A DNA stretch of 61,181 nt, counting the filler, from Globobulimina sp. (taxonomy: Eukaryota): the NCBI GenBank assembly GCA_003354225.1. It is 7 parts of 7 records of this genome, joined end to end, with 100 filler letters (N's around TTAATTAATTAA, not from the genome) between each part and the next. Parts side by side here need not be neighbours in the genome. Positions count along the whole stretch, not along the records: positions 52,567 to 61,181 come from PIVH01000074.1; 6 more parts are not named here. One strand, given 5' to 3'. The position numbers were made by a program, and so were the translations under genes. Shown here piece after piece: positions 9,661 to 61,181 of the stretch (positions are counted from its first letter, which is position 1; each line of letters starts with the position of its first letter). A model generated the notes under the pieces. The model worked only from the letters and a program-made list of their open reading frames with translations. It had not been told where the DNA came from and made no database searches.

Positions 9661-9935
9661 GATTAATAAAAAAAGATTATTTTGGAAAGTTTTTCTCAGC
9701 TATCAAGCATACTAACAAATCTTCTCAGCAAACAAGGATAATAAATGTTTGCCTAATTTTTTTTGATGATATGCTCATCATTATAAATATAGATATTTTG
9801 CAACTTTGTTTTAAATATTTACAATAGAACAAATTTAAATATGAATCGGAAATATCCGGCCTGATTCAACTGCATCAGTCAGTTACTAAAACCTCTTTCA
9901 CACTTTCTCTTTAATACCTCAGGGGTTACATAACA

Positions 9936-12900
9936 ATGGCAAACAAACAGTCCGTCTTATTAAAGATGATATTATCAATGATTTATACAATTGCAATTGT
10001 AACGAGTACTTCAATTAGCAGTGATCGTCCAAATATAATATTTATGTTTGCAGACGATATGGGATTTAATGATGTTCAGTTCACCTCATCAGATTTAACC
10101 CAACCGTCGACAGATACAAACACGCCAAACTTAAACAAATTAGCACGAGTCGAAGGTATAGTATTACACAATTATTATGTCCATCGCATGTGTAGCCCGA
10201 CGAGAGCCGCATTCCTCTCCGGACGGTACTCCTTTCGTTCTGGAATGGCGACCAATTTATTGCAGCCAGATATGGCAGTTTCGTTAACGAGACAAGTTTC
10301 TCTCCTTTCTGAAGAGTTTAAACTCGCCGGTTACAATACGCACGCCATTGGGTACTGTATATGTATAATATATGATATTTATAATAAATTAAAATAACAA
10401 TAACAATACAAATAAATAGTAAATGGCATTTAGGCTATCAAGCGTGGGAATATACGCCTACTTATCGTGGATTTGACACATTTTACGGTTATTACAATGC
10501 GTGGACTGATTATTATTTGTCTGATTATTATATTATTGTAGACGATGTGGAAAAGAATTACCTCGATTTGCGACAGAATGAAGATGTAATGAGCACCGAC
10601 AACATTTATAGCATTGATAGATTTCGAGACGAAGCCATTGGTATTTTGAGTAATAATGAGAATGCTCCATTTTTTATGTACATCGCGTGGCAATCTTCGC
10701 ATTTACCATCAGAAGCACCCGATGCTTATCTTGATTTATACAAAGAAAGCACTACGGATCAAGGCGTGGCTTTGGATGAAGCGCGCATTTATAACCAGGC
10801 CCAAACCAGCTGTATGGATGCGGCCATTGGCCAAATTGTAGCGGCGTTGAAAGCAAACAGTTTGTGGAGCAATACGTTGCTCATATTTTCGAGTGACAAT
10901 GGCGGCCTTATTAATGTTGGCGATAATTTCCCTTTGCGCGGCTATAAAAAGACTGTGTTTGAGGGCGGATTAAGAGTTCCCGCATTTGTTTCCGGCGGGT
11001 ATTTGAGTGCGGAGCAGAGAGGTCTGTCGTTGCTGCTTTTTTGTTTGCACTTTGCATATTTAAATGTTTTGCTGTAATTTCCAAATTAAGGCAAAGTCAC
11101 AGGCGGCAATGAGTATTTTCATGTAACTGATTGGTATCCGACCTTATTGGAGGCAGCAGGCATTGAAGTGCAATACGCCAAATCCAGCAAAAAGAAGGTA
11201 GAAAATGAAGTGGTTGGCTGGGAAGCATCTGATTATGTGATCCCGTTGGATGGCATTTCAATTTGGAACAGAATACAACACGGCACAATGGACCAGGCCT
11301 TGAGCAGTCGGGTCATGTATTTGGATGTTGTGGTTGATGCGGATTTAAATTGTTTGAATGGCAGTGTACGATCTGGGAAATGGAAATATATCAAAGGTTT
11401 GGGCACCACGGATAGTGCTGACACGGATGATGGGTATTTATGGGGCGACTCGTTTGCCGATGTCTCCTCCGATCGACATTTGTGGGGCCGGCATTTTGCA
11501 AATGGAGAGATTGAGAACTCATTGGGCTGCGATTTGGATCCGAATGCAGAGCCCGCCAATTTACTGTGCTTTGAGACTGTCGAAGGCTGTTTGTTCGATT
11601 TGGAGGCTGATCCGTGCGAAATGAATGATGTCAGTGTCGAATTTCCAGTCAAATTCGATGATTTGAGACAGAAATTACAAGATTTGGCGAAAAGTATACC
11701 CACTGATGTGACAAGCGATGGGTTGTTCGGTATGGATTCCACAGACGAATGGTGTCCAAGTTCAAGTGGTGAATATTGGGGACCGTGGCAAGAATACGCA
11801 CTCACTGGCTTTGAACAAGTGCTATTAACAGATTTTAATGCGCTGTATGCTGATGGACAACTTATGGGAAATAATGAAAAAACGAAAGAATTAACTAAAA
11901 TGCATCCACGGGTCACAGTGTCGTCTTCGTGCAATGATAAAGATGAGGGATTATATTATATTAAGCCGACTGTGCACGGCGCCATAATCCCAGTGATATG
12001 CAATGGTGGCTTTACAATGTTGGATGCCTCCTTAAATTTTGACGCTTTATCCACATATTTCTCGTCAATGTATCTTTATGGCGATGGAGCAAAAGCCATT
12101 TATGGGACAGATTGCAGTGACTCTGCGGGATGGAGGGATTGGTACATTCCGGCAAATGCAAATACAAAATTCCGTGTTGCCAGAGACTGTCTTGAATGTG
12201 AACAAGGTTCGTTTGTATTGTGTACAATATTTTATTTTGCAATTAATTTCAATTTAAGGCGGAATATACGGCGACAACACTGGTTATTATATGTCAAATG
12301 GCTATTTTTGTCCGGTGATGCTGGATATTGATGGCTGTTCGGACAAGAAAGATCTGAGTGGCCAGGTGGTGCCAGACGTGATGTGCAATATTTGCGACGA
12401 TGTGGATGGTTTATGCGGCGATGGTGAGGGCAGAACTGGCGAAACTTTATTCGATTCAGCAGATCCGTCGTGGTGCGACTGTTATACCTTGCAACTGAGT
12501 GCAGATCATCTGACCACAACGGAACACGGAGCATATTGCCAAGACACTTTAGATTGGCGGCCCAATTTGGTGGTCGATCGAAGCCAATGTACTTGTTATA
12601 AACCGTTGGATGTCGAATTGCAAATATATGATGACATCGAAATGAGTCAATTGCCATTTGTTTCTGCCGCGTTTAAGGATGAGATCATAGCCTCCGGATT
12701 GTACATTGATGACTTGATTATATGGGATGAGGAGGAGGATGATGACTCCATCTCTGATAAGACGACATGTGGAGAAACAACAACTTATCTGAGTCAAGAC
12801 GACTTTTTATATGGAACTTATAGAATTACGGACTGTGGGAATTATGTGTTGACCCAAGACATTGTGGTGAATTTCAATAAACCATCTCGAAAATTTGACT

Positions 12901-14899
12901 TCTTTGCGGGCGATTCGCCAAATTCCTACAATATGGAGGACCTGCCTTGGTTTCCAAGCACTGCACAACAAGAAAGTGGGCAATATTTTGGCTTTAACGC
13001 CTTTTGGGGGCCGTACTCCATTGGCTTTATGGCAGCCATCACAGTGGAAACCGACCACGTTTATATTGATTTAAATGGGTTTAGCATTTCTATGGATTAT
13101 GAATTTTATTTACAACAACGCTTCTTTGCGCTGATTGAGTTTGGAAACAAGCAGTTTGAAGCCCGACAGGGTCCGGTTGATTTTGGCAGAGATGACTTGT
13201 GCGCAAAAGACATCATTGTCAAAGACGGCACATTGGGTTTATCGTCGCATCATGGCATTCATGGTTCGTGTGTCAAAGGGGCCGTAATCTCAAATGTGAA
13301 CATCGCAAACTTTGATGTGACTGGAATACAATGCAATGGCTGCCGAGCAATGACGATCGAAAGTTGTGAGATTGGACCACAAAATGTCAATATTCCAGTA
13401 CGTGGCAGATATACACATGCGAGGATTATGCTGTCGCGGCTGCGATATCTCGTGGATGAGTATGGAGCGGAAACATTGTCATTTGCCAACCGTAATGGTG
13501 CGGTTATTACTGTTCAGGAATTGGCGGATACGTTGATAGAACAAATGGATATGGTTTATTATCATATTATTGATGGCATTGAATTCGCTGAGGATAACTC
13601 ACAATGGATGACGGCCAAAGAAACCTTCATAAATCCGAGTGGTTGGATGGTATGTAATTAATGTCGTATTTTATTTTATATACTAATTATTTTCTTTTAT
13701 TTTATTGTGTGTAGGATGGTGGCTCATCGTATGGTATATTACTGAATGGATTTGGAACGGCCGTGGTGAATATTGGAAGAAGAACGGGCTCAACGTTCGA
13801 TATTAACATTGCTGATGTGGAGATCCATGATATTCGGGTCAAACCGTACGAGAATTTTTGGGCTGCAGCCGGTAGCCATATTGTTCATGGATTTTTTTTC
13901 GAGACAATTGATTGGAATGGAAATGTTATGGATGACAGTGGCCTCTATTTAGGTGATACGTACACCGACATTTTGTTTGCGGCAAATAAATATTTATCGC
14001 ATGAGTTTTGTCCATTGGGTCCTTTGTTTTATTTGGATGCCTTGGCAGACTGGGTATGGATCGACGGGACATCCACAAATGAGCTGGATCTCGATTTTCG
14101 CTGTGGCTCTGACATACAATCACATGTCTCCAAAGGGGCTATGGGTATACGGATTGACGGTGTTCAGGATTATTCATTGCAGAATGTTTACATTCATGAT
14201 ATTGCCAATTGGGGCGATTTGGGCAGTTCAGCCTGCGGCGAATATGAAGGCATCACCTTTGAAATCGGTGTTGATGTTGACAAGGACATACAATATGGCT
14301 ATACCGGCAGCAAAGTACATGGCATATTGACAGATTATGCGACTGGAACTTTAAAGAACATCAAAATCGAACATTTAAAATCATTGTATGGCTCTGCGAA
14401 TGCTATTGCTTTATACAAAGGATCAGCTGCGACATTGGATGGATATATAAATATAAATGATATTATTGCTGGTTCTTCGCTGTCGGCAGATGAAGCAAAG
14501 CAATTAATTTTACCAAATCCGCAGCCATTTGTGTGTTCAATATTGATTGGAGCGAATTCTGATTCTGAGACAAATCCGGAATTAACACCAAGTGTCTCAA
14601 TCAATGGTGATTTTATAGTGAGTGCTACAAATTTATTTGGCTATGATTATTGTTTGGAAAATGAACGTGTTGGAACCATGGCTGATGTGAAGACACCGCA
14701 ATATTTTGGAGAAACAAATGTTGTTAATGGTGATTTGGTATTTTCAGCGAAGAAAATTAATTTTAAAAATACATTTATTTTAGGATTATTATCCATATTT
14801 GTTGTGGCTGCCATTCTTTTCTTTAAAATTGATAAGAAAAAATTAAATGAATTACAAAAAAGCAAATTTACAACCTATGGTTCAGTTATAACTAATTAA
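9936..14899 (+). CDS. Arylsulfatase (S1 family, ARSB-like) fused to Cys-rich and beta-helix-like domains with C-terminal TM
   Basis: Signal peptide, PNIIFMFADDMG, CSPTRAAFLSGRY, GKWHLG (across an intron), SSDNGG, FHVTDWYPTL and LFDLEADPCE. In-frame introns at 10352-10419, 11022-11090, 12207-12258 and 13650-13714. Confidence 0.9.
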
Positions 14900-35581: not shown

Positions 35582-37757
35582 TTACGGTTTATTTGCATTT
35601 AAAATAGAGATAGCGGTCAAAACGTTTTCATCCGACAATCCAACTTTGATATCGGTTTTAACAAAATGATTTTCAAGCATTGCCTGGGTTTCTTTTGTTG
35701 CAATTTTATTTAATGGCAAATCATCAATGGCAATCCATGAAATTACTTGATATGTTTTTTTTATATCGTGTAAATATTGACATATTTCCACAGGTTTTTC
35801 CATTTGCGATCCTAACACGGGAGTATCACCAATCACATATTTATTCACATCCACACTGATTATCGACGACAATTCACCAAATAACAGTTCTTTCGCAGAA
35901 GCTATGCGCCTCCAACTTGTACTTAACACAATTCTGCAATCTGTAGAAACCAAAATCCTTTTTAAACGGAATAAACATTCACGACATAATGCACCATCGT
36001 CAAAATCGCGATAATTTAATACGCCATCAACATCCAAAAATAATATCTTTATTCCTTCCTTTTCAGATATCGGTTGTAATTTTTTGTTGCTTTTGCGCCC
36101 ATTTAAAATAAAAATTACTTTTTCAACATCAGAATCAGTCAAACCTTTGGCAGGGTTTGTTTTGATGAAATTATTTTTCATAAAAGCTGTATATTTTCTG
36201 TTTATTGTATCCAATGGAATATCATCGATGGCGCACCACGCCAATACATTGTAGTTGCAATTTAAAAACGCGTCGGTCTCCAAATATGTTTTTATTTCTT
36301 GTGCCCGACCTTTCAATGCATCCATTGCTAATTTTGGGGTGTCTCCAATCACAATGCTATGCACATCAATGTCAGCAAACCTCTTCAATCCATTTAGTAA
36401 TTCTATCCTTGTCTGTTTATAAACTCTCCACGATGAACTTATACAAATCTTACAGTTTCGCGTCCGATTTAAGATGCTTTTCAATCGCAATATATGTGCC
36501 CCAGACAATGATGGCGAATATGAACAATTTAATACGCCGTCGACATCTAAAAATAATAAACAAATATCCTCCTTCTCGCGATATTTATCGTCCTCTTCGA
36601 TGATTAATTTTTTTGTCACTAATTTATTGGCGAAACGCACCTTCTTTCTTTCACTTGTTTGAGTTGCAATTGTTGCATTTCCTGACCTTCGTTTCCTAAA
36701 AACAGATAAAGACGTTTTTGCTGAAGAGATTTTGGGCAAAGTTTGTGGCGGAATATCTAACACAAAATACAAATATATATTCAGAATTTGATGATTCAGA
36801 ATAGACAGAATGGAATGCCGTACATTGTTTTTTATCGTTGATGTTGTTTTTATCGTTGGTACTTTCACCATCATCAACATATTGAATGTCTGGCGGTTTC
36901 CTCTCGAAAACGCGTCCATTGAAGGCAGGCATACTACAGCTGTCATTTGCAATTTTTTTATCATTTGATTTGAACTCATTTGAACAAATTATTGTTGGTT
37001 GTTTTGGGTCAAATTTATGTTCAAATGACTGGTTTTTGTCTGGCATAAAATCGCCACATTCTTTTATTAATTCACTGTCTAAATAAGGATTATTCTTTTT
37101 TTTTGATTTCTTCTTTGATTTCTTATTAAAGAAACCGACTAAATCGCCATATTCCAACTGTCTCTTTGATGCAGGTTTTGCGTCCTCTGAAGAAGCTTGC
37201 TTTGTTACTAAGTTTGTGGCAAATTTTACTTTTTTATTTTTATTCTTATTTTTGTTTTCATTCTCATTGTTTTGCTGCCTATTTTTAAAATATTGGTCAG
37301 CGTGTTTTTCACTTTCTAGCTTCAAATGAGAGTCCCAATCTTTTTGTAAATCCATTCGATTCTCTGTATTAAAGGGCGACGGATCTTTTTCTGTTTCATA
37401 TTTTTGCATTAAAGCAATGTTATTTAATTTATGTTTGCAGTCAGCTTCAACTTTGTTTTCCGCTTTGCACATATTATCCCACCACGAATCATCTCGGCCA
37501 GCAATAGATGTCGATGATGAGATTTTTTTTTCATTTTTATTTTTATTTGAATTTGAATTTAAAGGGTTGATAATTGCACTTCTTTTTGGTTTTGGTTTTA
37601 ATTTACGTTTTTCTTTCTTCTTTTCTTGTGCTTGCGAATCACAAGGAATTGCTTCTCTTATTTCTACAATGCCATCATCGCGATAATGTGTGTATTGCTC
37701 TAATAATTCTTCAGCAGGTTTAGACAGACCACTGGCAGCGGTATTTTGCTGAGACAT
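35582..37757 (-). CDS. Protein with low-complexity N-terminus and two tandem HAD (HAD_SAK_2-like) domains
   Basis: Two copies of LFLDVDGVLN...(I/L)S(S/T)SWR...IGDTP...EI..YL...W.AIDD. Joined to ORF 36696-37757 by an intron at ~36757-36823. Confidence 0.85.
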
Positions 37758-38374: not shown

Positions 38375-41300
38375 TTACTCCATTGAACGCATTGAAAGAA
38401 TCATAGTCCATACAAACGATACAGAAGCGATCCACGGCAATCTCCAATGTTTTGCTAGTGTAAAAGTGACGCATTGAGCAGGTATCCATATTTTCCATGC
38501 AGCGCATATATCAGCTTTCGATGGAAGTCTATAAAGAGCTTTGTGATTCTCTGTCTCACTCTCACTATGTTCCAACCTATCTTTAATGAAATAGAATGCA
38601 GGAAAATACATAAACGGAGTGTGGATGCATTGATCAAAAACAACTTTTGCTGCGCGGTCCAACATAACGTTTTGTGGGTTCTGTAATTTATAATTATATT
38701 TATTAACACACTATCAATTACTTACTAACACCTTACTAACACCTTACTAACATAATACTACCTTGCTGCATATAGAAAGTTGCAACAGCAGTCGTAACCT
38801 ATTCAGTCCTTTCGTGCTTTGAATCGCTTCTGATTCAACACGACGTAAAGTGCTCACTAGACTAACGAGCAGCGGTACACAAGCAACGACATAGCGAATT
38901 CATATTAGTTCAAGTCCCTCATATTAGAAATATGACGTCATGGAATAAGCAGAATTCATATCGTAACATCGCAAGAGGCAAAAATAATGATTTTAGGAAG
39001 AGCAATAACCGAAATAATAGCGCGCCATTAACAGAAACAGAGCAAAAACAAAGAGATGAAATGCGCAAATTTCACCAAGAAAAACGATTTGAAGAGCATA
39101 AGAAATTGGATGTATTGTTCAATAATTTTAATGCAGAGATTACGTTTAACGAGAGATTGGGATATCGGCTATTCGGCGGAAGACCGGGATTTACTATTTT
39201 TTTCTATAATAATGGGAAGAATATGAATAAGTATCTCCACGATCCGAAGAAAGCAGATAAAATCTTTGAAAATCTGTGTCCGGTATGGAAAAAGCTTAAG
39301 GTTTGGTGTATTAACCAATGCCAAAAGCGAGACTCCGGAGACAAATACGCGGAATTATCATTTGCGTGGGACGACGATATTTATGCCATTGAGGAGTCGG
39401 GAATCGATAGTTTTGAGTTATTAGCGGTCGCAAAGAATGAATTCTTGCGATCTATGAATGAAAAGAGAGAGAGCGGTGACGTGCATTTGGACATGCATTA
39501 GGCAAAAAATTTAGATTTTGGACAGAAAGAAGAAAGTATGACGCCCCAAACTCGTATAAATATGTGTGTAATAACGCATACATATCAACGAAACTGAGGG
39601 AGTCGCGAGTCATTGAAGATGATGTGGCACGGCAAGAAGCTTTAGACATTATTTCAAATGGCTTTAAAGGGTATAAAATTACCTGTTACCGTTTTGGAAA
39701 GATCACAAAAAATATTAGTACCGGTTTATGCTTGACGGCGTCCAGCCCGATCGATATAAATTGGCTGAAGAAAAATGTGCGATCCTTAGCCGGCCAGAGG
39801 GTGAATTGGGTCGTGTTTAAGGAAAAAAAGGACATGGAAAGGAGGGAAGTGTGGAGCAATGAGATGAAATTGAAGAAATTTAAAGAGCAGAAAGTCAAAG
39901 CCGGCGCCTCGAATGGTATTAAATGGTGTTTAGCTGAAGAAAAATTAGACGATGATATTGCGGAAGAGATATTACGTAAATATAAACATGACAGCAATGG
40001 TACCGTCTTCCTTACGTCCAGGGAAGCGATGGTGGCAAAGCTGAATGGTAATATTGACCGCTTTAAGAGTCGCATTGTGAACGAAATGCGAGAGGCGCTG
40101 TATGCGTTAAACGAAGAGAGTGAAGCGGAGATTCAAGTTGATGCTGATATGAATGAGCAGAACGCCGACGTCCGGGAGGAAGACAGCGTTAACAATGTCG
40201 TTGTAAGTGCACCGTCTGCCGCACCTACAAAACCTGCACAGTTCGAATTTGGTACGGACTCTTTTAGTGAAGCAATGAGGAGAGATCAGGTGCTGACACT
40301 AAAGAGAAACGTAGAGCAGAAAGGTGGCACTATGACGGAGAATGAGGCATTACGCATATTAAAATATTGCTTATTTAACGACCATATTGTCGCTGAATTA
40401 TGTGGTAATAAATCAATACAGCGAATTGATGGTGAATTGATATTAAATGGAATCGAGAAATTTGAAAACGCGAAAAAGTCACAATCGCAGTACTCATTTA
40501 ATGGGTATAATATGTATTAATCATCATAATATGTACGCCGTCTCCAAAGAATGACCCATTAATAAATCAGAAAATAAAGCGTTTCTATGAAGCGGTTGCG
40601 GACTTATCTGATTTTAGCATTGAAGTAAGTATCATATGGGTGAAGGCGCACAATAAGGAGATAGGCAATGAAGCGGCTGATGACATAGCCAAAGCGGCAA
40701 TGTTCAATCTCTACCAAACAAGACAATGGAATGAAGTGGAAAAGAAATACTCTGAAAAAGAATGGATTAATTACGGCATAAAAGCAGTGAAAAAAGAAAA
40801 TAAAAGATACGGATTTCATCGGACTTTGAATAAATGGACGAGATACCGTAAGAAGAGGGAATCTGTGGGTCATCATAGTATGCCACTGATCCAGAATTTG
40901 ATTGATTGGGGAATTGATTATCATTATGCGTATAAATACGAAATGGATAAACTATATCGATGGCAGTGGTGCATTGTAACACAACTCCGATGTGGTCAGC
41001 ATTGTAACACAACTCCGATGTGGTCACAATCGGTTAAATGCACAGCAAAAGTATGGATATGATACAAAATCATGTGAACAGATTGAATGCAATGGAACTG
41101 AAGAGAACTTAAATCATTTTATTAATCATTGTGGAATGTACAGAGATCTCAGAGAGGAGATGAGGCAATCAATGAATAGTATATTTGTTGAGGTATATGG
41201 ATATAATTTGGCGGATGCAGACGAAGAGACATTAATTAAATTCGTTTTGTTCCCGTTACAGAGCGAGCTAAAAGAACAAGTCATTAAAAGAGATAGAATT

Positions 41301-52566: not shown

Positions 52567-53130
52567 TCAATTTTTGATGTATGTGATCCAATATATCCAG
52601 AGGATGAAATACATTTTGATGCAGCGACTAATGGCAGTCGGGAGACAGGTTGGTGTCCGGCGATTGGTTGTTGGTACAAAGGCAATTGGTTTGCGGTCCC
52701 AATACCGGAGAGATTCACAAATAAATATATTTCATTACGTACGGAGTATGTCAAAGAATACGCGATTGCGCATTTTGAATTGTTAGCAATTATCACAGGA
52801 TTGCATACATTCAAACATTTAATCAAAGCGCACACAAAGATATTGCTAAAAACGGACAATAAACACGTTTTAGCAGTTATAATTAATAAGAATTCAGACG
52901 ATGAATTCTTACAAGATGGGGTTCGTTGGTTATGTATGTATGCAGTGGAATTATCTGTAAATTTATACATTGATTATATTAATACGAAAGCAAATAAAAT
53001 CCCGGATTTAGCGTCGAGATTTGATATAAAAACATTATTGAAAGTCGCAAAGAATAAATGTAGGAGAAATGGGTGGAAATTAAGGGATTGTTCGAGAGAA
53101 TGTAATTTTCCATACATACATGATTGGTAA
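52567..53130 (+). CDS. RNase H domain (C-terminus of pol, continued from the window end)
   Basis: HFDAATNG...IAHFELLAIITGL...LLKTDN...YINTKANKIPDLASR is a DIRS-type RNase HI pattern. Confidence 0.9.
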   Translation, partial: SIFDVCDPIYPEDEIHFDAATNGSRETGWCPAIGCWYKGNWFAVPIPERFTNKYISLRTEYVKEYAIAHFELLAIITGLHTFKHLIKAHTKILLKTDNKHVLAVIINKNSDDEFLQDGVRWLCMYAVELSVNLYIDYINTKANKIPDLASRFDIKTLLKVAKNKCRRNGWKLRDCSRECNFPYIHDW

Positions 53131-54114
53131 ATGGAGATTGTTGTATTTTGTTCAAATAATAATGTAAAATCATTTTAATATCCATTCATTTGTAATAAAT
53201 ATGTTGATTCGTAATGTTTTGGTTGAGTTGAATTATGTGATTTGTATTAAGATATTAATAATGAATATTTCTGTAACAAATAGATTAATATTAATGTGAT
53301 AAATGTATTAATATTTGGACTTAGTGAAATTGGGTCGGGACTCTGTATTTAATCGACGTTGTTTACAGTGGCAACAACGGATTGACTCAGAAATGACGGT
53401 GAATATTTCATTGATTTGTTAAAAATTAACGTAATTCATCAGATTCTGGGGATTGAAATGGTTGTTTTTGTTGTATTAATAAATGATTTCCGATATTTTG
53501 TGATATTTCGTGTTTTTTGGTGGACGGATGGTCCTTGGTTTGATTGTAAATTTTATTTGTTTTCAATTTATTAATCAGTAATTGGGCGATAATAAGCAAG
53601 ATTTAATAAAAAATACATCGGAAATTATGTTTAATGTATGATTTAGCCTTCGAATCAGAAGGAACATAAAGTGGTATTTGTATAAAAATGTCATTTGTTT
53701 ACATAAATTGTGATAATTTGTATTGGTTCCTTTCCCGCAAATAAAATCAGGCCTGACCGGGTACTCAGAAAATAAGTCATTTCAACATGGAATATTTCAT
53801 GGAAACGTGTGTCTTGTCATTATTTAATAAATCATATGCATTAAATATAGATTAATTAATATTAATTGAGATATCGCAATTTGTATCAATATCGATAAAT
53901 ATGATGATTTGTTTCTGTTTTTATATAACAGATTGACTATGGAGACTTTATAGAGTGACTATAGAGTGATTACATTAGCATTGGTTGAGGTTATATCACA
54001 TATAGATTGATAGTGACAGTCGGTGTCATTGTTTTGTACGTTTTATAGGGGCACGGATTTTGTTTTAGTTTACTGTAAAAACAAAAAAACCGTCAACGTT
54101 TGGGTTAGTTTGCT

Positions 54115-55473
54115 TTGTGTTTGTATGTATTGTATACATTTTATATAGTTAGAGGCAGACAATATGATCACCCGATTTGGTCGAAAATAAATCCGATTTA
54201 CAAGGAATTACTATTTATGGCGTTAAATGGTGGAGTGAGGGAGTCCACAGAATCAACGTATGTGAAGAATTTTTTATTTTATTGGAAGACGATGAGGAAT
54301 TTTGGTTTGACGGATGAGGAAGTTTGGACGTTCCCGACTCCTGACGCATTTTTGCAACTATATACGATTCAATGTTGTATGGTGCAGAAGAAAGTAAATT
54401 GTTGGTCCACTATGAGACTAAAATATAGATCCATTGATTTTGTCGCGCAGTTATGTGGAAAATTTCAATCGTGGTCGGATAATCCGGCACTATATGCATT
54501 AACGAAATATGTTAAGAAGAGAAACCCGGGAAAAGGATCAAACACTTTACCGGTGACAGCAGATATATTGTTACAAATGTGTACATATATTCTGACGTTT
54601 AAGGTTTATAATGATTTGATATTGACAGATAATGAGAAAAGGCTGAAGAAGAAGTGGCTGTCTTTTAAAAAGATATGGCAGGATAAGAAGAGGTTATTTT
54701 GGTATATGTTTACTATATCTATTTTATTTGTGGGCGTATTAGGATTGAGAGGGGCGGAGTGTTATGAAAATAACAACAAAGCCTATGTTGGTTATGGTCT
54801 TTATTTATCGGATTTGGACTTTTATTGGTTGGATGACAATACCAATACGATTTATCAAAATAATGCCTTTTCCCTTGCGTATGAAGATCTGCATCATGTT
54901 AGGGTCAGATTGAGGAATTCCAAGGGAAAGACGAAAGGCAAGGATGTTATGTTAAGAGTGGGTAAAACCAATAATAAGATTGATTTGGCAGTAATCCTCT
55001 TACATATCTATCATACGCAGAAGAGAGATCTGAAAAAGATCCACAGATTAAGTTTGCGTAAATATTATTTATTTCAACCAATTAAAAGAAGTATGAAATT
55101 AAGAACGGTTAAGAAATATTGGAAGATGATTGTGGTAGAAATGGGTTTCTGGGAAGCAGAGAGATATAGGTTTCATGGATTGAGAAAGGGATTTGCGACA
55201 ACCCTGCAACAGAAAGGAGTGCCAATGAGCTTAATTGCCTTCGCTGGCAGATGGAAGTTAACTGCTGCAATTTATAGATATTTGATTCATACACAGAGAG
55301 ATCTGATATGCTTAGCAAATATTTTCCTATATGGAAAAAATAGAAATAAAATTGCGTTGGATATGGATGCAAATGAATGTGATTTGGTGAGAGAATTTAA
55401 TAATAATAACGAACAATTTTCAATGGAATTTATTAATGAATATCAGGCAAAATTATGTGAATATGAAATATAG
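54115..55473 (+). CDS. Tyrosine recombinase (DIRS/Ngaro type)
   Basis: RESTESTY N-terminus; GLRGAE (R), LRNSKG (K), FHGLRKGFAT (HxxR), AGRW and YRY (Y). True start uncertain (ATG at ~54218, or spliced). Confidence 0.92.
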   Translation: MCLYVLYTFYIVRGRQYDHPIWSKINPIYKELLFMALNGGVRESTESTYVKNFLFYWKTMRNFGLTDEEVWTFPTPDAFLQLYTIQCCMVQKKVNCWSTMRLKYRSIDFVAQLCGKFQSWSDNPALYALTKYVKKRNPGKGSNTLPVTADILLQMCTYILTFKVYNDLILTDNEKRLKKKWLSFKKIWQDKKRLFWYMFTISILFVGVLGLRGAECYENNNKAYVGYGLYLSDLDFYWLDDNTNTIYQNNAFSLAYEDLHHVRVRLRNSKGKTKGKDVMLRVGKTNNKIDLAVILLHIYHTQKRDLKKIHRLSLRKYYLFQPIKRSMKLRTVKKYWKMIVVEMGFWEAERYRFHGLRKGFATTLQQKGVPMSLIAFAGRWKLTAAIYRYLIHTQRDLICLANIFLYGKNRNKIALDMDANECDLVREFNNNNEQFSMEFINEYQAKLCEYEI

Positions 55474-55953
55474 CCTTGGTGGTGGTGGGGGGATTAAATT
55501 AATTAAGTATTGATTGTTTGTGATAAATTATGCGATGTGGAGTAAGTTATGTATATTGATTATATTTAGTATATATTATAATGGATATTGATGATAACGA
55601 GATGGAGATTGGAATAGGTTTAATATTATGGGCTATTGTTAATATGTATTATAAAGTATATTTAATTGAATTTAAATTAATATTATTTTATCCACATCGA
55701 TAATTGTCAATAAAACTGAACGTTGTGTAAGCGACGAAGGTTTCATTCAATTTGAAGATACCTAAAGTGACTGACTTAAAAGTTTTTGTTTTGTTGTGTT
55801 GTGAATTACTTTTTCTTTTTCCTTGCACAGAAAAAGAAAAAAGAGATATTTATTGCAATTTTCGTTTGCATTAAATAGCAAAAGTCTGAAAGTAGCAAAT
55901 ACAGTCAGATTTTATTGAGATTACTTGCATACAACGTTAGTCAGTCCTAAGTT

Positions 55954-57357
55954 ATGGCGTTAGGATTAATTGGAGGAATCTCTAAAGAGAAGGCGCAGGC
56001 AATGAGAAAGCGTTTGAAAATAAGTGATTTGGATGATTGGTTGAATACGACCTTATTACTTTTCCCGGGCTATGCGCATGACATTGCATTCAAAAAACCG
56101 GCAGATAGAAATGCGCTATTTATTCAAAATAATGGTATTAATAAAATGGTCGGCATTGAGTTTGAAGGGAAGAAGGAATTATTTCTGAGATTATGTCCGC
56201 GTTTTAATAAGAATCCAGCCGATGCGAATAATAATGTAACGGAGAAAAAGCAGGATGTGGCGACGTTGCTAACTATTTTATTCAAAGAGGTATTATCAAT
56301 GTTACATTTTAATGTTTTGTTGACATTGAAGGAGCTATGGAATGTATTGCATGAAAAAGTAGATAAATTTTTAACAAATATTGGCAGTACGTTTTTGAAT
56401 TTGGAATATTCTCGGTTAGGTAATTTTGGTTTGGTGGAGGAAGAGGAGGAGACTGTGATTGAAATTAGAAGGAATTTAACGAAGGTAATGGAGTCTTTGG
56501 CGTTAGGTTTAATGTCCAAAGATATATTTAAAAAGGCATATGAGTTAAAACCTGACGATGTATTGAATATATTTAATGCATCGGAACTAAAGCAATTTGC
56601 AGCGGAATCATTTCAGGCATTTCAGGGTGGTGTGGATAACCATTTTAATTCTTTATTACCTCCTCCTAAGCCTGCACCAGCTGCAGATCCAAAACCAAAA
56701 CCAAAACCAAAACCCAAACCTAAACCCAAACCAAAACCTAAACCGAAATCAAAGCCGAAACCAAAATCTAAACAAAAACCGGTCGGCAGAAAATTGAGGC
56801 ATATTGTTAGGAGAAGGGAAGAAGAGACGGAAGAAGAAGATGGTTCGTCTGATTCCAGTGGGGATCAGAGGATGGAACGAGATGGAGATGAAAAAGAAAA
56901 GAAAGTCAGATTTGGTGATGATTTGGATGAGGTTACGAGAGAAGAAATAAATGAGATTTTAGATGCAGATGACCGTATGGATGGTGATAATACGGAATTA
57001 TTAAAATCTTATATAAATAAATTAGAAAAGCAGATTGAAAGAAGTAAGGCTGAGGAATATAGGGTAGACTCAATGGAAAATATAAAAAGATATGCGGACA
57101 GTCATGGTTTGGGTGACCGGGACAATAAATACTATGCAACAAAGGAAGACTTAGAACATTTACAGAAGATATTTCAGCCAAAAGGATCGATGAGCGCTGT
57201 GAATGAATTGATGACTGAAAGTATTAATAATATTTGGGGCATATTAAGGAAGCCGGAATTGTCGCCAATAGATACACGTAATGCAATGATACACATTGCA
57301 ACAAGTTATGTATCAGATACCCTCTTTATTTCTTCCTTTATTTTTATTTTATTTTAA
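55954..57357 (+). CDS. ORF1/gag N-terminal part with (PK)n and acidic tracts
   Basis: 467-aa ORF with a PKPKPK repeat at ~56690-56780. Probably spliced to 57641. Confidence 0.7.
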   Translation: MALGLIGGISKEKAQAMRKRLKISDLDDWLNTTLLLFPGYAHDIAFKKPADRNALFIQNNGINKMVGIEFEGKKELFLRLCPRFNKNPADANNNVTEKKQDVATLLTILFKEVLSMLHFNVLLTLKELWNVLHEKVDKFLTNIGSTFLNLEYSRLGNFGLVEEEEETVIEIRRNLTKVMESLALGLMSKDIFKKAYELKPDDVLNIFNASELKQFAAESFQAFQGGVDNHFNSLLPPPKPAPAADPKPKPKPKPKPKPKPKPKPKSKPKPKSKQKPVGRKLRHIVRRREEETEEEDGSSDSSGDQRMERDGDEKEKKVRFGDDLDEVTREEINEILDADDRMDGDNTELLKSYINKLEKQIERSKAEEYRVDSMENIKRYADSHGLGDRDNKYYATKEDLEHLQKIFQPKGSMSAVNELMTESINNIWGILRKPELSPIDTRNAMIHIATSYVSDTLFISSFIFILF

Positions 57358-57645
57358 ATTTTTATGGTAAACTAATACGTGTTCCCTGTCCCACAATTAA
57401 AAAATACAATTTTTCCAATACGTGCGTGTATTGTGTTTGTTGGGACATATATGTTTAGTATGGATTTATTTGATATTATATTAAATAAAATCTTTTATTT
57501 ACGCAAAGTTGCACCACATATGATACTGTATGCAGTTAAAAAATGTTTAAATTTTTTATTAAAAAATAGTATTTTATTTTTAATTTTGATTGTTTGTCAA
57601 GTTATTTTATTTGATATCTGATTTTATTATGTATTTTTAGGAGGA

Positions 57646-58857
57646 ATGTTACATGACAAAATAAATAAAAATGATGGTATTAATTTATTAAAGCAGGCTG
57701 AATTAAAGATTGCTTTGAGGGAATTTATTCATTTTTTAGTTTATGGTTTCGGAGATCCATTTTATTTAATTAAATTTATGTGGGCAAGTCATTGGAAAAT
57801 ACATTTAAATTATGGTGTCAATATAAAATCTGCATTAAAGAAATTTATTAGTAATAAGATGTCATTTCATACATTATGGTCAACCATCACATTAAGAGCT
57901 ATTGATACTTTATTATCATATTCGTCAAAGGATATTAGATATAATAAAGTATATTCATTAATAATTAACAATATTAATGGAATGAGACTGTTTGCGAAGA
58001 CGCAAATATTTCCATTGATTAATGACAAATCCATTAAAGCAAATATATTTTGGCAAAAAGTATCTATTGCTTTGTATATAAATAAATGGAGAGACTATAA
58101 TGAAGAATGTATTTTGTGTTGGAAATCATCAGAATTCACACATTCATGGAAAATGCATATGAATTCGGAGGAAAGTAAGTTATATGCGATCGAAAACCTG
58201 CCCAATGAATGTAAAATACTATTTGTTGGAAATGGTGATAATGATATTGTGATGGAAGATGTTGGTGAAATTGATGGAAAAAAGGTTGGTGGTGATGCAG
58301 AAAAACAAAATAGATTTAATAAGAAATTAAAGTGTTATAATTGTGGTGGACCGCATTTAAAGAGAAACTGTCCAAAAATTATCCAAAAATATAATACAAA
58401 ATTGGCGAGAAATAATAAGAAATTAAGAAAGAGATTAAGAGATGGTCGAGATAGGAATTATGATAAAGCACCACCAAATCAGTCGCAATATCGAAGGCCA
58501 TATACTCCGCCATATAAAAAGCAGAGATATGATCAAAATTATCAACATCGAAAGAATTATAATCAAAATGATGATAATAGGACTGATGAGAGGCGTACAA
58601 CGGAGACATATCAGAGGCCACAGAAAGGGGCGAAGTTTTATAATGTCAATGATGGATCGTATTTTATTAAGGATGCATATTATGGTGACAGACCGTGTCA
58701 TTTTTGGAAAGATTATAATTATGTTTGCAAGTTTAAAAATGATTTCTTATTATGTGGCTATCCACATTATTGTGAGAGATGTGGTATTGCGAATGAACAT
58801 ACCTCCTATAATTGTCCCAATGCGCAATCAAAGAGATTTGCAGGTCATGGGCGTTAA
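57646..58857 (+). CDS. gag C-terminal part with zinc knuckles
   Basis: CYNCGGPHLKRNC and a terminal CHFW...C......C...H.C..C....H....C double finger typical of Ngaro-like gag. Confidence 0.85.
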   Translation: MLHDKINKNDGINLLKQAELKIALREFIHFLVYGFGDPFYLIKFMWASHWKIHLNYGVNIKSALKKFISNKMSFHTLWSTITLRAIDTLLSYSSKDIRYNKVYSLIINNINGMRLFAKTQIFPLINDKSIKANIFWQKVSIALYINKWRDYNEECILCWKSSEFTHSWKMHMNSEESKLYAIENLPNECKILFVGNGDNDIVMEDVGEIDGKKVGGDAEKQNRFNKKLKCYNCGGPHLKRNCPKIIQKYNTKLARNNKKLRKRLRDGRDRNYDKAPPNQSQYRRPYTPPYKKQRYDQNYQHRKNYNQNDDNRTDERRTTETYQRPQKGAKFYNVNDGSYFIKDAYYGDRPCHFWKDYNYVCKFKNDFLLCGYPHYCERCGIANEHTSYNCPNAQSKRFAGHGR

Positions 58858-59459
58858 GGGAGATTCGCTATGATAAATATCCATATTAATGAATTAAAAA
58901 TTAGTTTTATTAATCAATTTCATTGTATATAATATACTTATTTATATTATGATTATTATTTTGTTTTTTATTTCATGGATTGTAATGATGATAAAATACG
59001 TATATATATTATATTGATTTGTTGTAATGAATGAATTTGATGGATATTATTTTATCTGTATATATAAATAAACATTTTATTTTAAAAAAGAAGAAATAAA
59101 TAAAAGAGATAGGGAGTAAAAGAAGAGGGAAATGTGTATTATGTTTTTATCTCAGTTATAAACAGAGCTCCTTTGATATTGATTAGATTCTGATATATTG
59201 TGAGTGGCGCATAAAAATTGTGTTTTGTTTGCTTGCAAAGTATTATTTAATATGGTTTTAAAAAGTAGAATAAACGTCAGATCTTTATAAAAATAGAGAT
59301 TATGGATGCAAGTAAAGAGATAAAATCATTTAATAAAAGGTTGCATGAATACTTTTAGGTATTTCAGGATTAGCGTAAAAATCCAAAAGGAAGCAGTGAA
59401 ACATATGTGGTGTATAAAATAAATATAGAATAAAGTTTTAAAAAGTTGTAAATATATAT

Positions 59460-61181
59460 TTGTACATAGTAAATGAGAAGATAGTCATGGAATTATTTAG
59501 AACATCTTACAGAAGTTCGAAATATAGGATTTCAAGGCTGTATAAAAGGAGATGGTATTGGTATGATATAATTCTTCCATTTATTGAAATGTGTGATAAT
59601 GAAGAGGTCGTTTATCGTTTTATGTGTATTATTATGAAGAATAATTTAGAATTTGGGTGGAAAATAGGGATAGAAAATCCAGAACATAAAAAATTAAATC
59701 AAGAGACCTATTCTGAGAAAGAAATGGATCGAAAAAGTAGGATGGCCATAGCAATGGATTTGACGCAAAATATGAATATTGGTAAAGCAGTCGGTTGGTT
59801 AGGGAGTCCAAATGGGATCGTCCCGTTGTTTACGAGAGAGAAAGATGTTGATCCAGTGACGGGAGAGGTATTTGAATACAGAATAATTAGAGATGGAACA
59901 AAGGGATCAAAAATGTATCCATCATTGAATGATTTGACGCCGGATCACAAAGCAAATATAGTTTTGATTTATTTAAAGGATATTTGTACATATTGTTATA
60001 TTATGTATTTGATATGGGGACCGGGCTTCAAATTGGCCAAAACAGATTTGGCGACAGCATTTAGGCAGTTATATTTAGCAATAACTGAGCCTGAAAATTG
60101 TATTTATAAATTTGATAATAAATTAATTGCAGATTTATATGATTTTTGGGGAACCAGATCTGGTTCAAAACATACGCAAGATGTGGGACAATTGATTTGT
60201 AGGTATTTTAATATAAAAATAAATGGTTTAAATTTATTAAATGATATTAATGAAGGCATTGAAAAAAGAAATTTATTATATTTCTTTAGGAAGTTTAATA
60301 AAAAAATGAATGAAAAAATGAATGAAAGAAATAGGAATTATATTTATGATAATAAACTATTATTTAAATGGGATAGATTATGTGTAAAGAGATGGTTATT
60401 GGAGAATGAATTGGTGGAATTAGTCGTATTCGTAAAAAAACTTATTGTTTAATGGGATGCGATTACTGTCTTTTAATATACACAAAGCGAGAGAGGTTTT
60501 ATCAGAGAATGAATTAGAAATTTTTATGGAGATGGATTTCTTTGATAAGTTAATTGAATTAAAATTAGAATGCAAACAATTATTAAAAGTAATTGTGAAT
60601 AACTATGTTGATGATTACATGTTATTTCTCCCTCCCTCGCAGTCAGTGGCGAATGATTTATTTAATCAGTTTTGTGATTTTATGAAGGAAGCAGGGTTGG
60701 TGGAGAAGGAAAAGAAAAGAGAAGGACCGGAGGACTATTTGGATCTGATTGGTTTTGATGTAGATACAATGAATATGGATGTCATAATGAGGGAGGAGAA
60801 GATATTTAAAATTGAACAATTACTAAATGCAGCGCTATTTCATCAGGTTGTGGATTTGGTAACGTTTGAGTCGATTGTAGGGAAATTACAGAATTTCTCT
60901 GGTTTCAAATGGCCGGGAAAGGCTTTTTTGAAGAGACTCAGAGATAAATTATATAAATATATTAAGTTATATGGTAGAAAGAATGTGATAATCATATTGG
61001 AGAGATGGGAGATGTTGGATTTTTTGTGGTGGAAGAAGTACATTAGGATTGTATACAAAGTATCAATTTTTGATGTATGTGATCCAATATATCCAGAGGA
61101 TGAAATACATTTTGATGCAGCGACTAATGGCAGTCGGGAGACAGGTTGGTGTCCGGCGATTGGTTGTTGGTACAAAGGCAA
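59460..61181 (+). CDS. Reverse transcriptase-RNase H (pol) with a +1 frameshift at ~60434-60440
   Basis: YRIIRD, GPGFKLAKTDLATAFRQL and FWGTRS in frame 3; NYVDDY (60601-60618), LIGFDVDT, ESIVGKL and HFDAA in frame 1. Confidence 0.92.

Follow-up and report, generated by a model that had tools for sequence, protein, structure and literature searches.

How does a retroelement whose genes lie apart on one closed unit express them, and why does its contig end where it began? These questions are raised by PIVH01000074.1, a contig of 8,615 nt in the Globobulimina sp. assembly GCA_003354225.1. We analyzed it as the last part (positions 52567-61181) of a window, by which we mean the whole 61,181-nt stretch of DNA considered here, in which seven unrelated contigs, sorted by length, are joined by N-linkers; all coordinates refer to this window. 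The best overall explanation of the unit, which we hold with moderate confidence, is a Ngaro-like tyrosine recombinase (YR) retrotransposon that is expressed by splicing and whose integrated copies were collapsed by the assembler into a loop.

Direct comparison of the contig ends revealed that the first and last 119 nt are identical, leaving an 8,496-bp unit that can be closed into a circle as claimed in a first-pass annotation. None of the 6 other contigs in the window has such an end overlap.

52567-52685, + strand: 119-nt end overlap, copy 1, inside the reverse transcriptase/ribonuclease H (RT/RNase H, or RT/RH) frame, same as 61063-61181
61063-61181, + strand: 119-nt end overlap, copy 2, same as 52567-52685

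The frame encoding the RT thumb and RNase H runs unbroken over the join, again as annotated, and we consider the earlier explanation of the 119 nt as an assembler k-mer reasonable. The + strand of the unit contains 1,792 G versus 891 C and every long open reading frame (ORF), which bears out the description of a single G-rich coding strand. The annotated cyclic order gag - RT/RH - YR on this strand holds as well, except that gag consists of two ORFs (55954-57357 and 57622-58857, with a 265-nt gap between them) and that the RT/RH frame is shifted at a run of seven A residues (A7). Spacers had been noted between the ORFs; they are real, but measure 265, ~600, ~1,000 and 480 nt instead of 0.5-1 kb throughout.

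We compared the unit with runs X1, X2 and X3, which are assembled contigs of one sample. In X1 the spacers reach depths of 9-21 and most ORF bins 10-35, these values being sums over contigs with relatives counted in and not copy numbers. Because X1 covers the spacers about as deeply as the ORFs, the spacers belong to the unit. A total of 158 X1 contigs match the unit, 57 of them at least 99% alike and 101 below 99%, and 30 of 38 coding differences are synonymous (among 40 of 139 differences). These comparisons indicate that X1, the one run holding the element, contains numerous sister variants subject to purifying selection. Runs X2 and X3, which come from the same sample as X1, yielded almost nothing of the unit, and this is no proof of absence. 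The neighboring contigs of the window are AT-rich and eukaryotic, with likely introns of 60-75 nt.

The unit is almost certainly a YR retrotransposon: genes for RT and RNase H are found together with a tyrosine recombinase whose catalytic set is complete.

59470-61181, + strand: RT and thumb, continuing through the overlap, with motif A (AKTD), motif B' (WGTRSGS) at 60147 and motif C (YVDD) at 60604
52567-53130, + strand: RNase H end of the RT/RH gene (Pfam RT_RNaseH, E 4e-5), colinear with relatives
54149-55473, + strand: YR exon with an R-K-H-R-W-Y set (Pfam Phage_integrase, E 8e-8)

The acidic residues of RNase H are present in FDAATNG, HFEL, TDNK and PDLASR. For the recombinase we found 32 related proteins with 35-53% identity, one of them from the foraminiferan Nonionella stella (EukProt). 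Arg-198, Lys-256, His-340, Arg-343, Trp-366 and Tyr-375 are invariant in all 31 rows of an alignment from which the two shortest matches were left out. We found five related loci, termed L001 to L005 below; RT/RH or its end precedes YR in L001, L002, L003 and L005, and L005 also shows the end of gag. RT/RH forms a single ORF of ~710 aa in L002 and L005, and a fold search with the L005 protein matches RTs and RNase H. Scanning viral and prokaryote genomes with the YR and RT alignments returned zero loci, no DDE integrase family is present among the Pfam matches of 6 ORFs, and an ESM Atlas search gave unnamed RT and integrase clusters only. In an RT tree that carried a long-branch warning, a single branch (100/100) separates 7 family rows from 4 outside rows; the outside rows are not named references, and we take them to resemble Ngaro in their motifs.

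We next consider how the separated genes may be reached. The following boundaries are proposed for the first exon, the spacers and their splice sites.

55954-57304, + strand: first exon, N-terminal part of gag, 450 codons, the only ORF with a clear start of its own
57305-57306, + strand: candidate shared phase-1 splice donor, whose frame fits all three acceptors
57639-57640, + strand: predicted phase-1 acceptor of the second gag exon, seen in the window only, defining a 336-nt intron
57641-58857, + strand: second gag exon, with a CCHC knuckle at 58333-58371 and a C-terminal Cys/His finger at 58696-58815
59468-59469, + strand: predicted phase-1 RT/RH acceptor, a YAG 23 nt before the RT anchor
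53131-54148, + strand: spacer between RNase H and YR, predicted to form the 3' part of the long intron leading to YR, with no 80-aa ORF and no coding signal
54147-54148, + strand: predicted phase-1 YR acceptor, a YAG 23 nt before the YR anchor

A phase-1 YAG is located exactly 23 nt before the RT anchor in all three loci that could be compared (window, L002, L005) and exactly 23 nt before the YR anchor in four of six (window, L002, L004, L005), counts that come from loci sharing ancestry and hence not independent. The remaining two, L001 and L003, encode YRs with longer N termini, and a phase-1 CAG is found further upstream, amid many other AG dinucleotides. Such a fixed acceptor place and phase is unlikely to be due to chance, because the elements are just 32-42% alike in protein. 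An in-frame Met before the anchor is absent in five of the six YR loci and in one of the three RT loci (L002). Of 30 relatives, 17 have a called protein that extends to the Trp behind the YR acceptor, and 16 of these 17 conserve it. The donor at 57305 is in frame with all three acceptors and would yield a Gag of 855 aa, an RT up to the frameshift and an exon 1-YR protein of 891 aa. In one X1 relative the match with the window stops precisely at 57306, in another it resumes at 59452 in the RT acceptor tract, and the acceptor context recurs at one likely host intron end. It is thus likely, judging from these sequence comparisons, that RT and YR are reached by splicing; that one donor serves all three acceptors is a candidate arrangement we consider rather probable.

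In the cycle that we propose, a single transcript would start in the A repeat (a terminal repeat described below) near 55710. Its first exon would be spliced from the phase-1 donor at 57305 to one of the three phase-1 acceptors, giving rise to Gag, exon 1-RT/RH or exon 1-YR, and the unspliced RNA would be the genome. Spliced expression occurs in other retroelements, for example for retroviral env and foamy virus pol. In Arabidopsis Ty1/Copia, splicing generates a subgenomic GAG RNA and sets an excess of Gag (PMC5580714; here and below, published systems are described from the accessible parts of the cited papers). As in Ty1/Copia and retroviruses, host splicing would set the ratio of structural to catalytic proteins; unlike in these systems, one coding first exon is predicted to be fused to three alternative downstream exons, and this in a YR element. 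The accessible parts of PMC12477816 and PMC8226300 contain nothing on introns in YR elements. Our literature searches, mostly judged by titles and abstract openings and with the original Ngaro description and a 2015 review outside their coverage, returned nothing on foraminiferan YR elements, on a SAM domain inside an RT, or on natural splicing of DIRS-order elements.

The two gag exons have few relatives. The first exon shares an RxADSHGLG motif with protein P0101, which ends soon behind the motif and represents the sole first-exon relative: among 47 matches in our search, 46 were judged to be low-complexity Pro/Lys from their matched ranges (two were inspected) and P0101 to be real. Within the first exon, a fifteen-fold Pro-Lys repeat (56689-56780) separates an N-terminal helical region from an acidic stretch. 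The CCHC knuckle and C-terminal Cys/His finger of the second exon are found in the L005 gag as well; Pfam zf-CCHC E values are 0.84 and 0.0025, neither reaching the cut-off, and BLASTP of the second gag exon against L005 gave no significant match.

Several observations weigh against splicing from a common donor. The predicted introns of 336, 2,165 and 5,340 nt are far longer than the 60-75 nt of likely host introns, two further phase-1 GT dinucleotides exist upstream of the donor at 57221 and 57278, and the donor is seen in this copy only, the fetched loci stopping short of it. In addition, in-frame Met residues near the acceptor are found in the RT of the window and L005 and in gag exon 2, and in many YRs a Met follows the conserved Trp at a distance of ~15-20 residues, making starts of their own possible. 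The spacers could then represent plain intergenic DNA, with the downstream genes relying on own promoters or re-initiation and with the gag gap and the RT shift reflecting decay of a dead copy, an explanation that we regard as unlikely. It would accommodate the in-frame Met near the start of gag exon 2 and of RT (window, L005, P0087), and Ngaro ORFs are in any case usually non-overlapping (PMC3266345). It does not account for acceptors at a fixed 23-nt distance and phase across such divergent elements, for an RT in L002 that has no Met before its anchor, or for the five of six YRs in which no Met precedes the conserved Trp. The predicted gag intron contains a T-rich open stretch of 81 codons (57376-57621) that shares its frame with both gag ORFs and looks like part of a longer gag that gained stops, but it shows no coding signal, and P0101 likewise ends just behind the donor-side motif. 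A search for fused YR proteins of 862-2,460 aa found none, which would fit plain spacers and is a weak test.

We also considered other ways to fill or bridge the spacers. That the 1-kb spacer hides coding exons or a methyltransferase was rejected, there being no 80-aa ORF or coding signal; the corresponding RNase H-YR spacer is merely ~80-160 nt long in L002, L003 and L005. A local intron fusing RNase H to YR was rejected as well, since the GT at the RNase H stop of the window is in phase 2 and is not kept in these three loci. The idea that the motif TTGTGTTTTGT is element-specific was dismissed, with only 3 of its 14 matches located in the unit. Two short non-coding blocks (57412-57443 and 59193-59232) are kept in X1 relatives amid diverging surroundings; they resemble small hairpins, followed by ATTGTGTTT, and are possible splicing or packaging signals. 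Degenerate tandem repeats occur in the gag-RT spacer of L002 (positions 1-268, 138-nt units) and L005 (positions 906-1088, 61-nt units), and none are present in the window.

Segments close to the donor are complementary to segments upstream of the two far acceptors.

57319-57393, + strand: donor-proximal RNA, in which 57319-57364 is complementary to 59084-59130 and 57358-57393 to 54047-54082
54047-54082, + strand: candidate YR 'selector', complementary to 57358-57393
59084-59130, + strand: candidate RT 'selector', weak and purine-rich, complementary to 57319-57364

The YR pairing brings together a segment 53-88 nt behind the donor and one 66-101 nt before the YR acceptor. It has a calculated energy of -34.5 kcal/mol with a 17-bp helix, ranks at the top of 8,300 spacer window pairs, was not attained in any of 1,000 local shuffles or of 55 search-corrected ones, and is 7 kcal/mol ahead of the best among 11 other non-coding queries. 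The RT pairing (-29.8 kcal/mol) was equaled in 13 of 1,000 local shuffles and in none of the 55 that were corrected for the search. The two pairings would compete, because their donor-side segments overlap by 7 nt. Docking/selector switches are known from insect Dscam. Here, pairing between the ends of the 5.3-kb intron may help the spliceosome to reach the far YR acceptor. Both pairings are stronger on the + strand, which G-U pairs favor anyway on a G-rich strand. Speaking against a function, the RT pairing is barely ahead of its next partners (-28.8 and -28.6 kcal/mol), an X1 relative does not match the donor-proximal segment, and the pairing was picked from the top inverted repeat in one sequence. 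We therefore put the YR pairing forward only tentatively as a functional candidate.

The RT palm contains an additional domain between motifs B' and C.

60200-60590, + strand: ~115-aa insert separating RT motifs B' and C, its core (~60369-60570) being SAM-like

The distance between the two motifs is 139-145 aa in all six family RTs measured, compared with 24-33 aa in four of four outside RTs; a seventh family RT, P0153, gave no motif-C pattern match and was left out of this count. The insert thus appears common to the whole element family. A search of the PDB with a family profile at E up to 10 returned 28 matches, 24 of which fall on the insert, all in SAM-bearing proteins and many of them SARM1 variants, the SAM label being presumed from the protein names. 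The best whole-sequence E values were 7.6e-6 and 1.8e-5. The full RT/RH model was poor in its RT part (mean pLDDT 54) and the insert was consequently folded alone; the L005 insert is predicted to form five helices (pLDDT 74.5). In this predicted fold and in a W-x4-[VI]-x2-W...G-x2-LL pattern it resembles the SAM domains of liprin-beta1, TIR-1/SARM1, neurabin and aveugle, but it differs from them in its location inside an RT catalytic domain and in falling under the Pfam cut-off. Indeed, Pfam SAM_1 scores 14.5 bits against a cut-off of 23 (E 0.048) in one of three relatives and is not detected in the window half examined. Further points against the assignment come from structural searches: SAM domains occupy most top rows of a fold search, yet the best Z score is 5.6 (rmsd 2.6, 72 aligned residues), tied with RSV matrix protein, and a Foldseek search with the L005 insert returned nothing significant (best E 0.59). 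On balance, we consider it very probable that the insert is a SAM domain. SAM domains oligomerize or bind RNA.

The frame change in RT is located within this insert.

60434-60440, + strand: A7 run, site of the RT frame change and a lesion of this copy, judged from the ORF frames and the continuous relatives

The RT frame is continuous in six of six relatives (L002, L003, L005, P0087, P0088 and P0091), and an X1 contig spanning the A7 run aligns with the window without a gap. Programmed frameshifting at A7 was rejected, as none of the six relatives has the shift, and so was a small intron, as both halves are colinear with P0088. This copy consequently appears to have no working RT and would need that of a sister element. 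Since the RT of DIRS-1 is able to act in trans (PMC7192593), an RT-broken copy could still move. The coding region of the RT thumb (60817-61016) has an unusually stable predicted fold (z -5.4, from 12 shuffles).

The remaining spacer, the 480-nt gap between YR and gag, is predicted to fold strongly (z -5.3; 0 of 100 shuffles) and may contain the ends of the element.

55516-55716, + strand: long imperfect hairpin after the YR stop, 79 pairs including 16 G-U, with its 3' arm (~55630-55709) as candidate B repeat
55710-55830, + strand: candidate A repeat and left element end with inferred boundaries, the candidate B|A junction being near 55710
55721-55948, + strand: multi-hairpin leader before the first ATG, from RNA folding

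The same region folds alike in L001 (z -4.6) and does not in L003 (z -0.7). In L001, YR is followed by 171 nt, an 80-nt segment, 148 nt, the same 80 nt and the contig end; the 80-nt segment is the 3' arm of the long hairpin and recurs 228 nt on. This resembles the B1-A2-B2 repeat pattern of Ngaro (PMC8547959, PMC9210276), with sizes of 80 + 148 nt compared with 152 + 236 nt in Xenopus DIRS-53_XT (PMC9210276). It is present in one of the five related loci, the others being too short or lacking the pattern. Three X1 contigs have loose ends at 55710, and the summed depth is 129 at 55686 compared with 12-17 at 55476 and 55841, making this position a candidate B|A junction. A point against it is that the loose end partly resembles the reverse complement of 55448-55466 (8 of 100 shuffles match somewhere in the window); because of this likeness to the YR end, it may be the hairpin arm of a relative and not host flank. 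Searches of the unit detected neither a second repeat copy nor an internal complementary region (ICR), and the loop holds one copy of each repeat, in line with the annotated absence of inverted terminal repeats and an ICR. Five of six local ICR searches scored no better than 20 shuffles; the sixth was slightly above (33 versus 30) and its match is too short for an ICR. An Rfam scan gave one match at chance level. A 5'-UTR intron ending near 55831 was rejected, its pyrimidine tract forming one arm of a 12-bp hairpin.

Why, then, does the contig close on itself? The first-pass annotation had rightly left open an episome, a tandem array or collapsed split repeats. We consider it slightly better than an even bet that the loop represents the collapsed split direct repeats of several copies. 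Integrated copies would have the structure A1-ORFs-B1A2B2 and would be inserted by YR recombination at the B|A junction. Provided that a de Bruijn assembler was used, that A is at least as long as k and that B is shorter than k, the assembler would have fused A1 with A2, pruned the flanks of low depth together with the short A2-B2-flank branches, and output what was left, an A-ORFs-B loop whose ends overlap by the k length (119). Three points tell against this scenario: A is required to be at least ~119 nt long; none of the 9 joints listed for X1-X3 leads from the A end back to the B start; and the frameshift in the consensus, for which a single template is the better fit, has to be reconciled with a collapse of many copies.

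A single molecule would indeed explain that lesion if the loop were a real DNA circle, arising either as the A-ORFs-B product of A1 x A2 recombination, with a solo AB as its counterpart, or as an intermediate of replication, possibly with enrichment through whole-genome amplification. The unit is exactly one element, its break in mid-RNase H is as expected for an unbranched loop, and no A-to-B joint is present among those listed in X1. Solo AB repeats are known for Ngaro in Cafeteria (PMC8547959), and some circular cDNA is discussed for DIRS-1, in which the cDNA is nonetheless mostly linear and single-stranded (PMC7192593). Differences between X1 contigs and the window are scattered, and the contigs include many variants, which points to several templates, and with a broken RT the circle could not copy itself. 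The proposed intermediate of Ngaro and PAT elements should carry two copies of each repeat, whereas the unit has one of each. We thus regard a real circle as possible, with the balance of evidence against it. A head-to-tail tandem array in a chromosome, collapsed by the assembler, is less probable still: YR elements are able to use their own B|A junction as an insertion site, pruned outer junctions would give an unbranched loop and a lesion could be common to all units, but the second B copy at the end of L001 is what one would expect of a lone Ngaro insertion, and nothing in the X1 contigs points directly to arrays. The frameshifted RT of this copy makes an autonomous episome unlikely, and some other origin of the loop is very improbable.

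A DIRS1-like element with its ends at the hairpin tip and the arms as inverted terminal repeats joined in a circle, as the 200-nt hairpin spanning the YR-gag gap might suggest, is hardly credible, given that just 59 of the 126 columns in an alignment of the arms agree and that 16 G-U pairs are required, that the tip has no ICR (score 25-28 versus up to 28-30 in shuffles), that a methyltransferase is missing and that the 3' arm is directly repeated in L001.

The element is probably a Ngaro-like YR retrotransposon of a protist, likely a foraminiferan, and part of a multi-member family. The YR, RT and RNase H motifs, the foraminiferan relative and the missing methyltransferase (RNase H ends in a stop, and the spacer behind it has no 80-aa ORF or coding signal) support the earlier call of a divergent protist retroelement of Ngaro type. 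The gag - RT/RH - YR order on one strand without a methyltransferase is common to Ngaro-like elements, including four types in Cafeteria burkhardae (PMC8547959) and Xenopus DIRS-53_XT (PMC9210276), as are the HxxR motif and Tyr of the recombinase. The separated ORFs had been called atypical, a claim we do not uphold: Ngaro and Viper ORFs are usually non-overlapping (PMC3266345), with overlapping ORFs in Xenopus Ngaro (PMC9210276). At 8.5 kb the unit is larger than the ~6 kb of Cafeteria Ngaro-like elements (PMC8547959). Unlike Ngaro, it has gag in two predicted exons, predicted phase-1 acceptors before gag exon 2, RT and YR, a SAM-like insert and no SGNH hydrolase ORF; atypical for Ngaro are the conserved candidate splice acceptors at spacer ends and the SAM-like insert in RT.

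The other YR groups fit less well. VIPER has the order gag - YR - RT/RH, and the unit gag - RT/RH - YR; VIPER-like elements also occupy kinetoplastid hosts (PMC9210276), compared with a foraminiferan relative here. PAT-like elements (Pat1) have a Gag zinc finger and split direct repeats, the latter seen in our family as a candidate pattern in L001 and the former in the window and L005, but carry a methyltransferase after RNase H (PMC4157794), which is absent from the unit and for which three relatives leave no room. DIRS-1 and DIRS1-like elements (PMC7192593, PMC3266345) share integration by YR, and the unit has neither their inverted terminal repeat/ICR system nor their methyltransferase. Membership in the DIRS1-like, PAT and VIPER groups was rejected, each failing on one defining feature in the unit. 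Structure alone misclassifies YR elements, and one Pat1 lineage has lost its methyltransferase (PMC4157794); the Gag zinc finger may be compatible with this lineage.

Other contigs of the window contain unrelated features. A multi-exon gene for a secreted sulfatase with a long C-terminal extension (9915-14899) is the source of the likely host splice sites. A YebC/TACO1-like frame at a contig start (16043-17454, - strand; Pfam E 4e-29) continues stop-free into an unrelated-looking coiled-coil protein and is either a library chimera or a real fusion. A protein with two HAD_SAK_2 domains, an RNA-repair-type HAD, is encoded at 35582-36988 (- strand), and an ORF without a Pfam family, followed by an RNase H fragment (39480-41062; E 1e-5), probably represents the remains of another retroelement.

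The loop is the least informative part of these results and does not demonstrate an episome; the complete unit it provides also locates the likely ends of the element. In its most far-reaching form, which we consider doubtful, the model would describe a foraminiferan YR lineage in which Gag, RT/RH and recombinase are three fusions to one 450-residue first exon, competing pairings select the far acceptors in a Dscam-like manner, the SAM domain oligomerizes or tethers the polymerase, and the loop represents a genuine A-ORFs-B circle produced by excision. Little is known about the expression of the second and third genes of YR retrotransposons, and a family with one donor and three acceptors offers exact, testable junctions, to which the candidate pairing adds a testable rule for acceptor choice. 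A domain retained between motifs B' and C in elements that are only ~33% alike would point to a place in the RT palm that tolerates insertions, and the SAM-like insert may represent a new way to assemble or target the polymerase.

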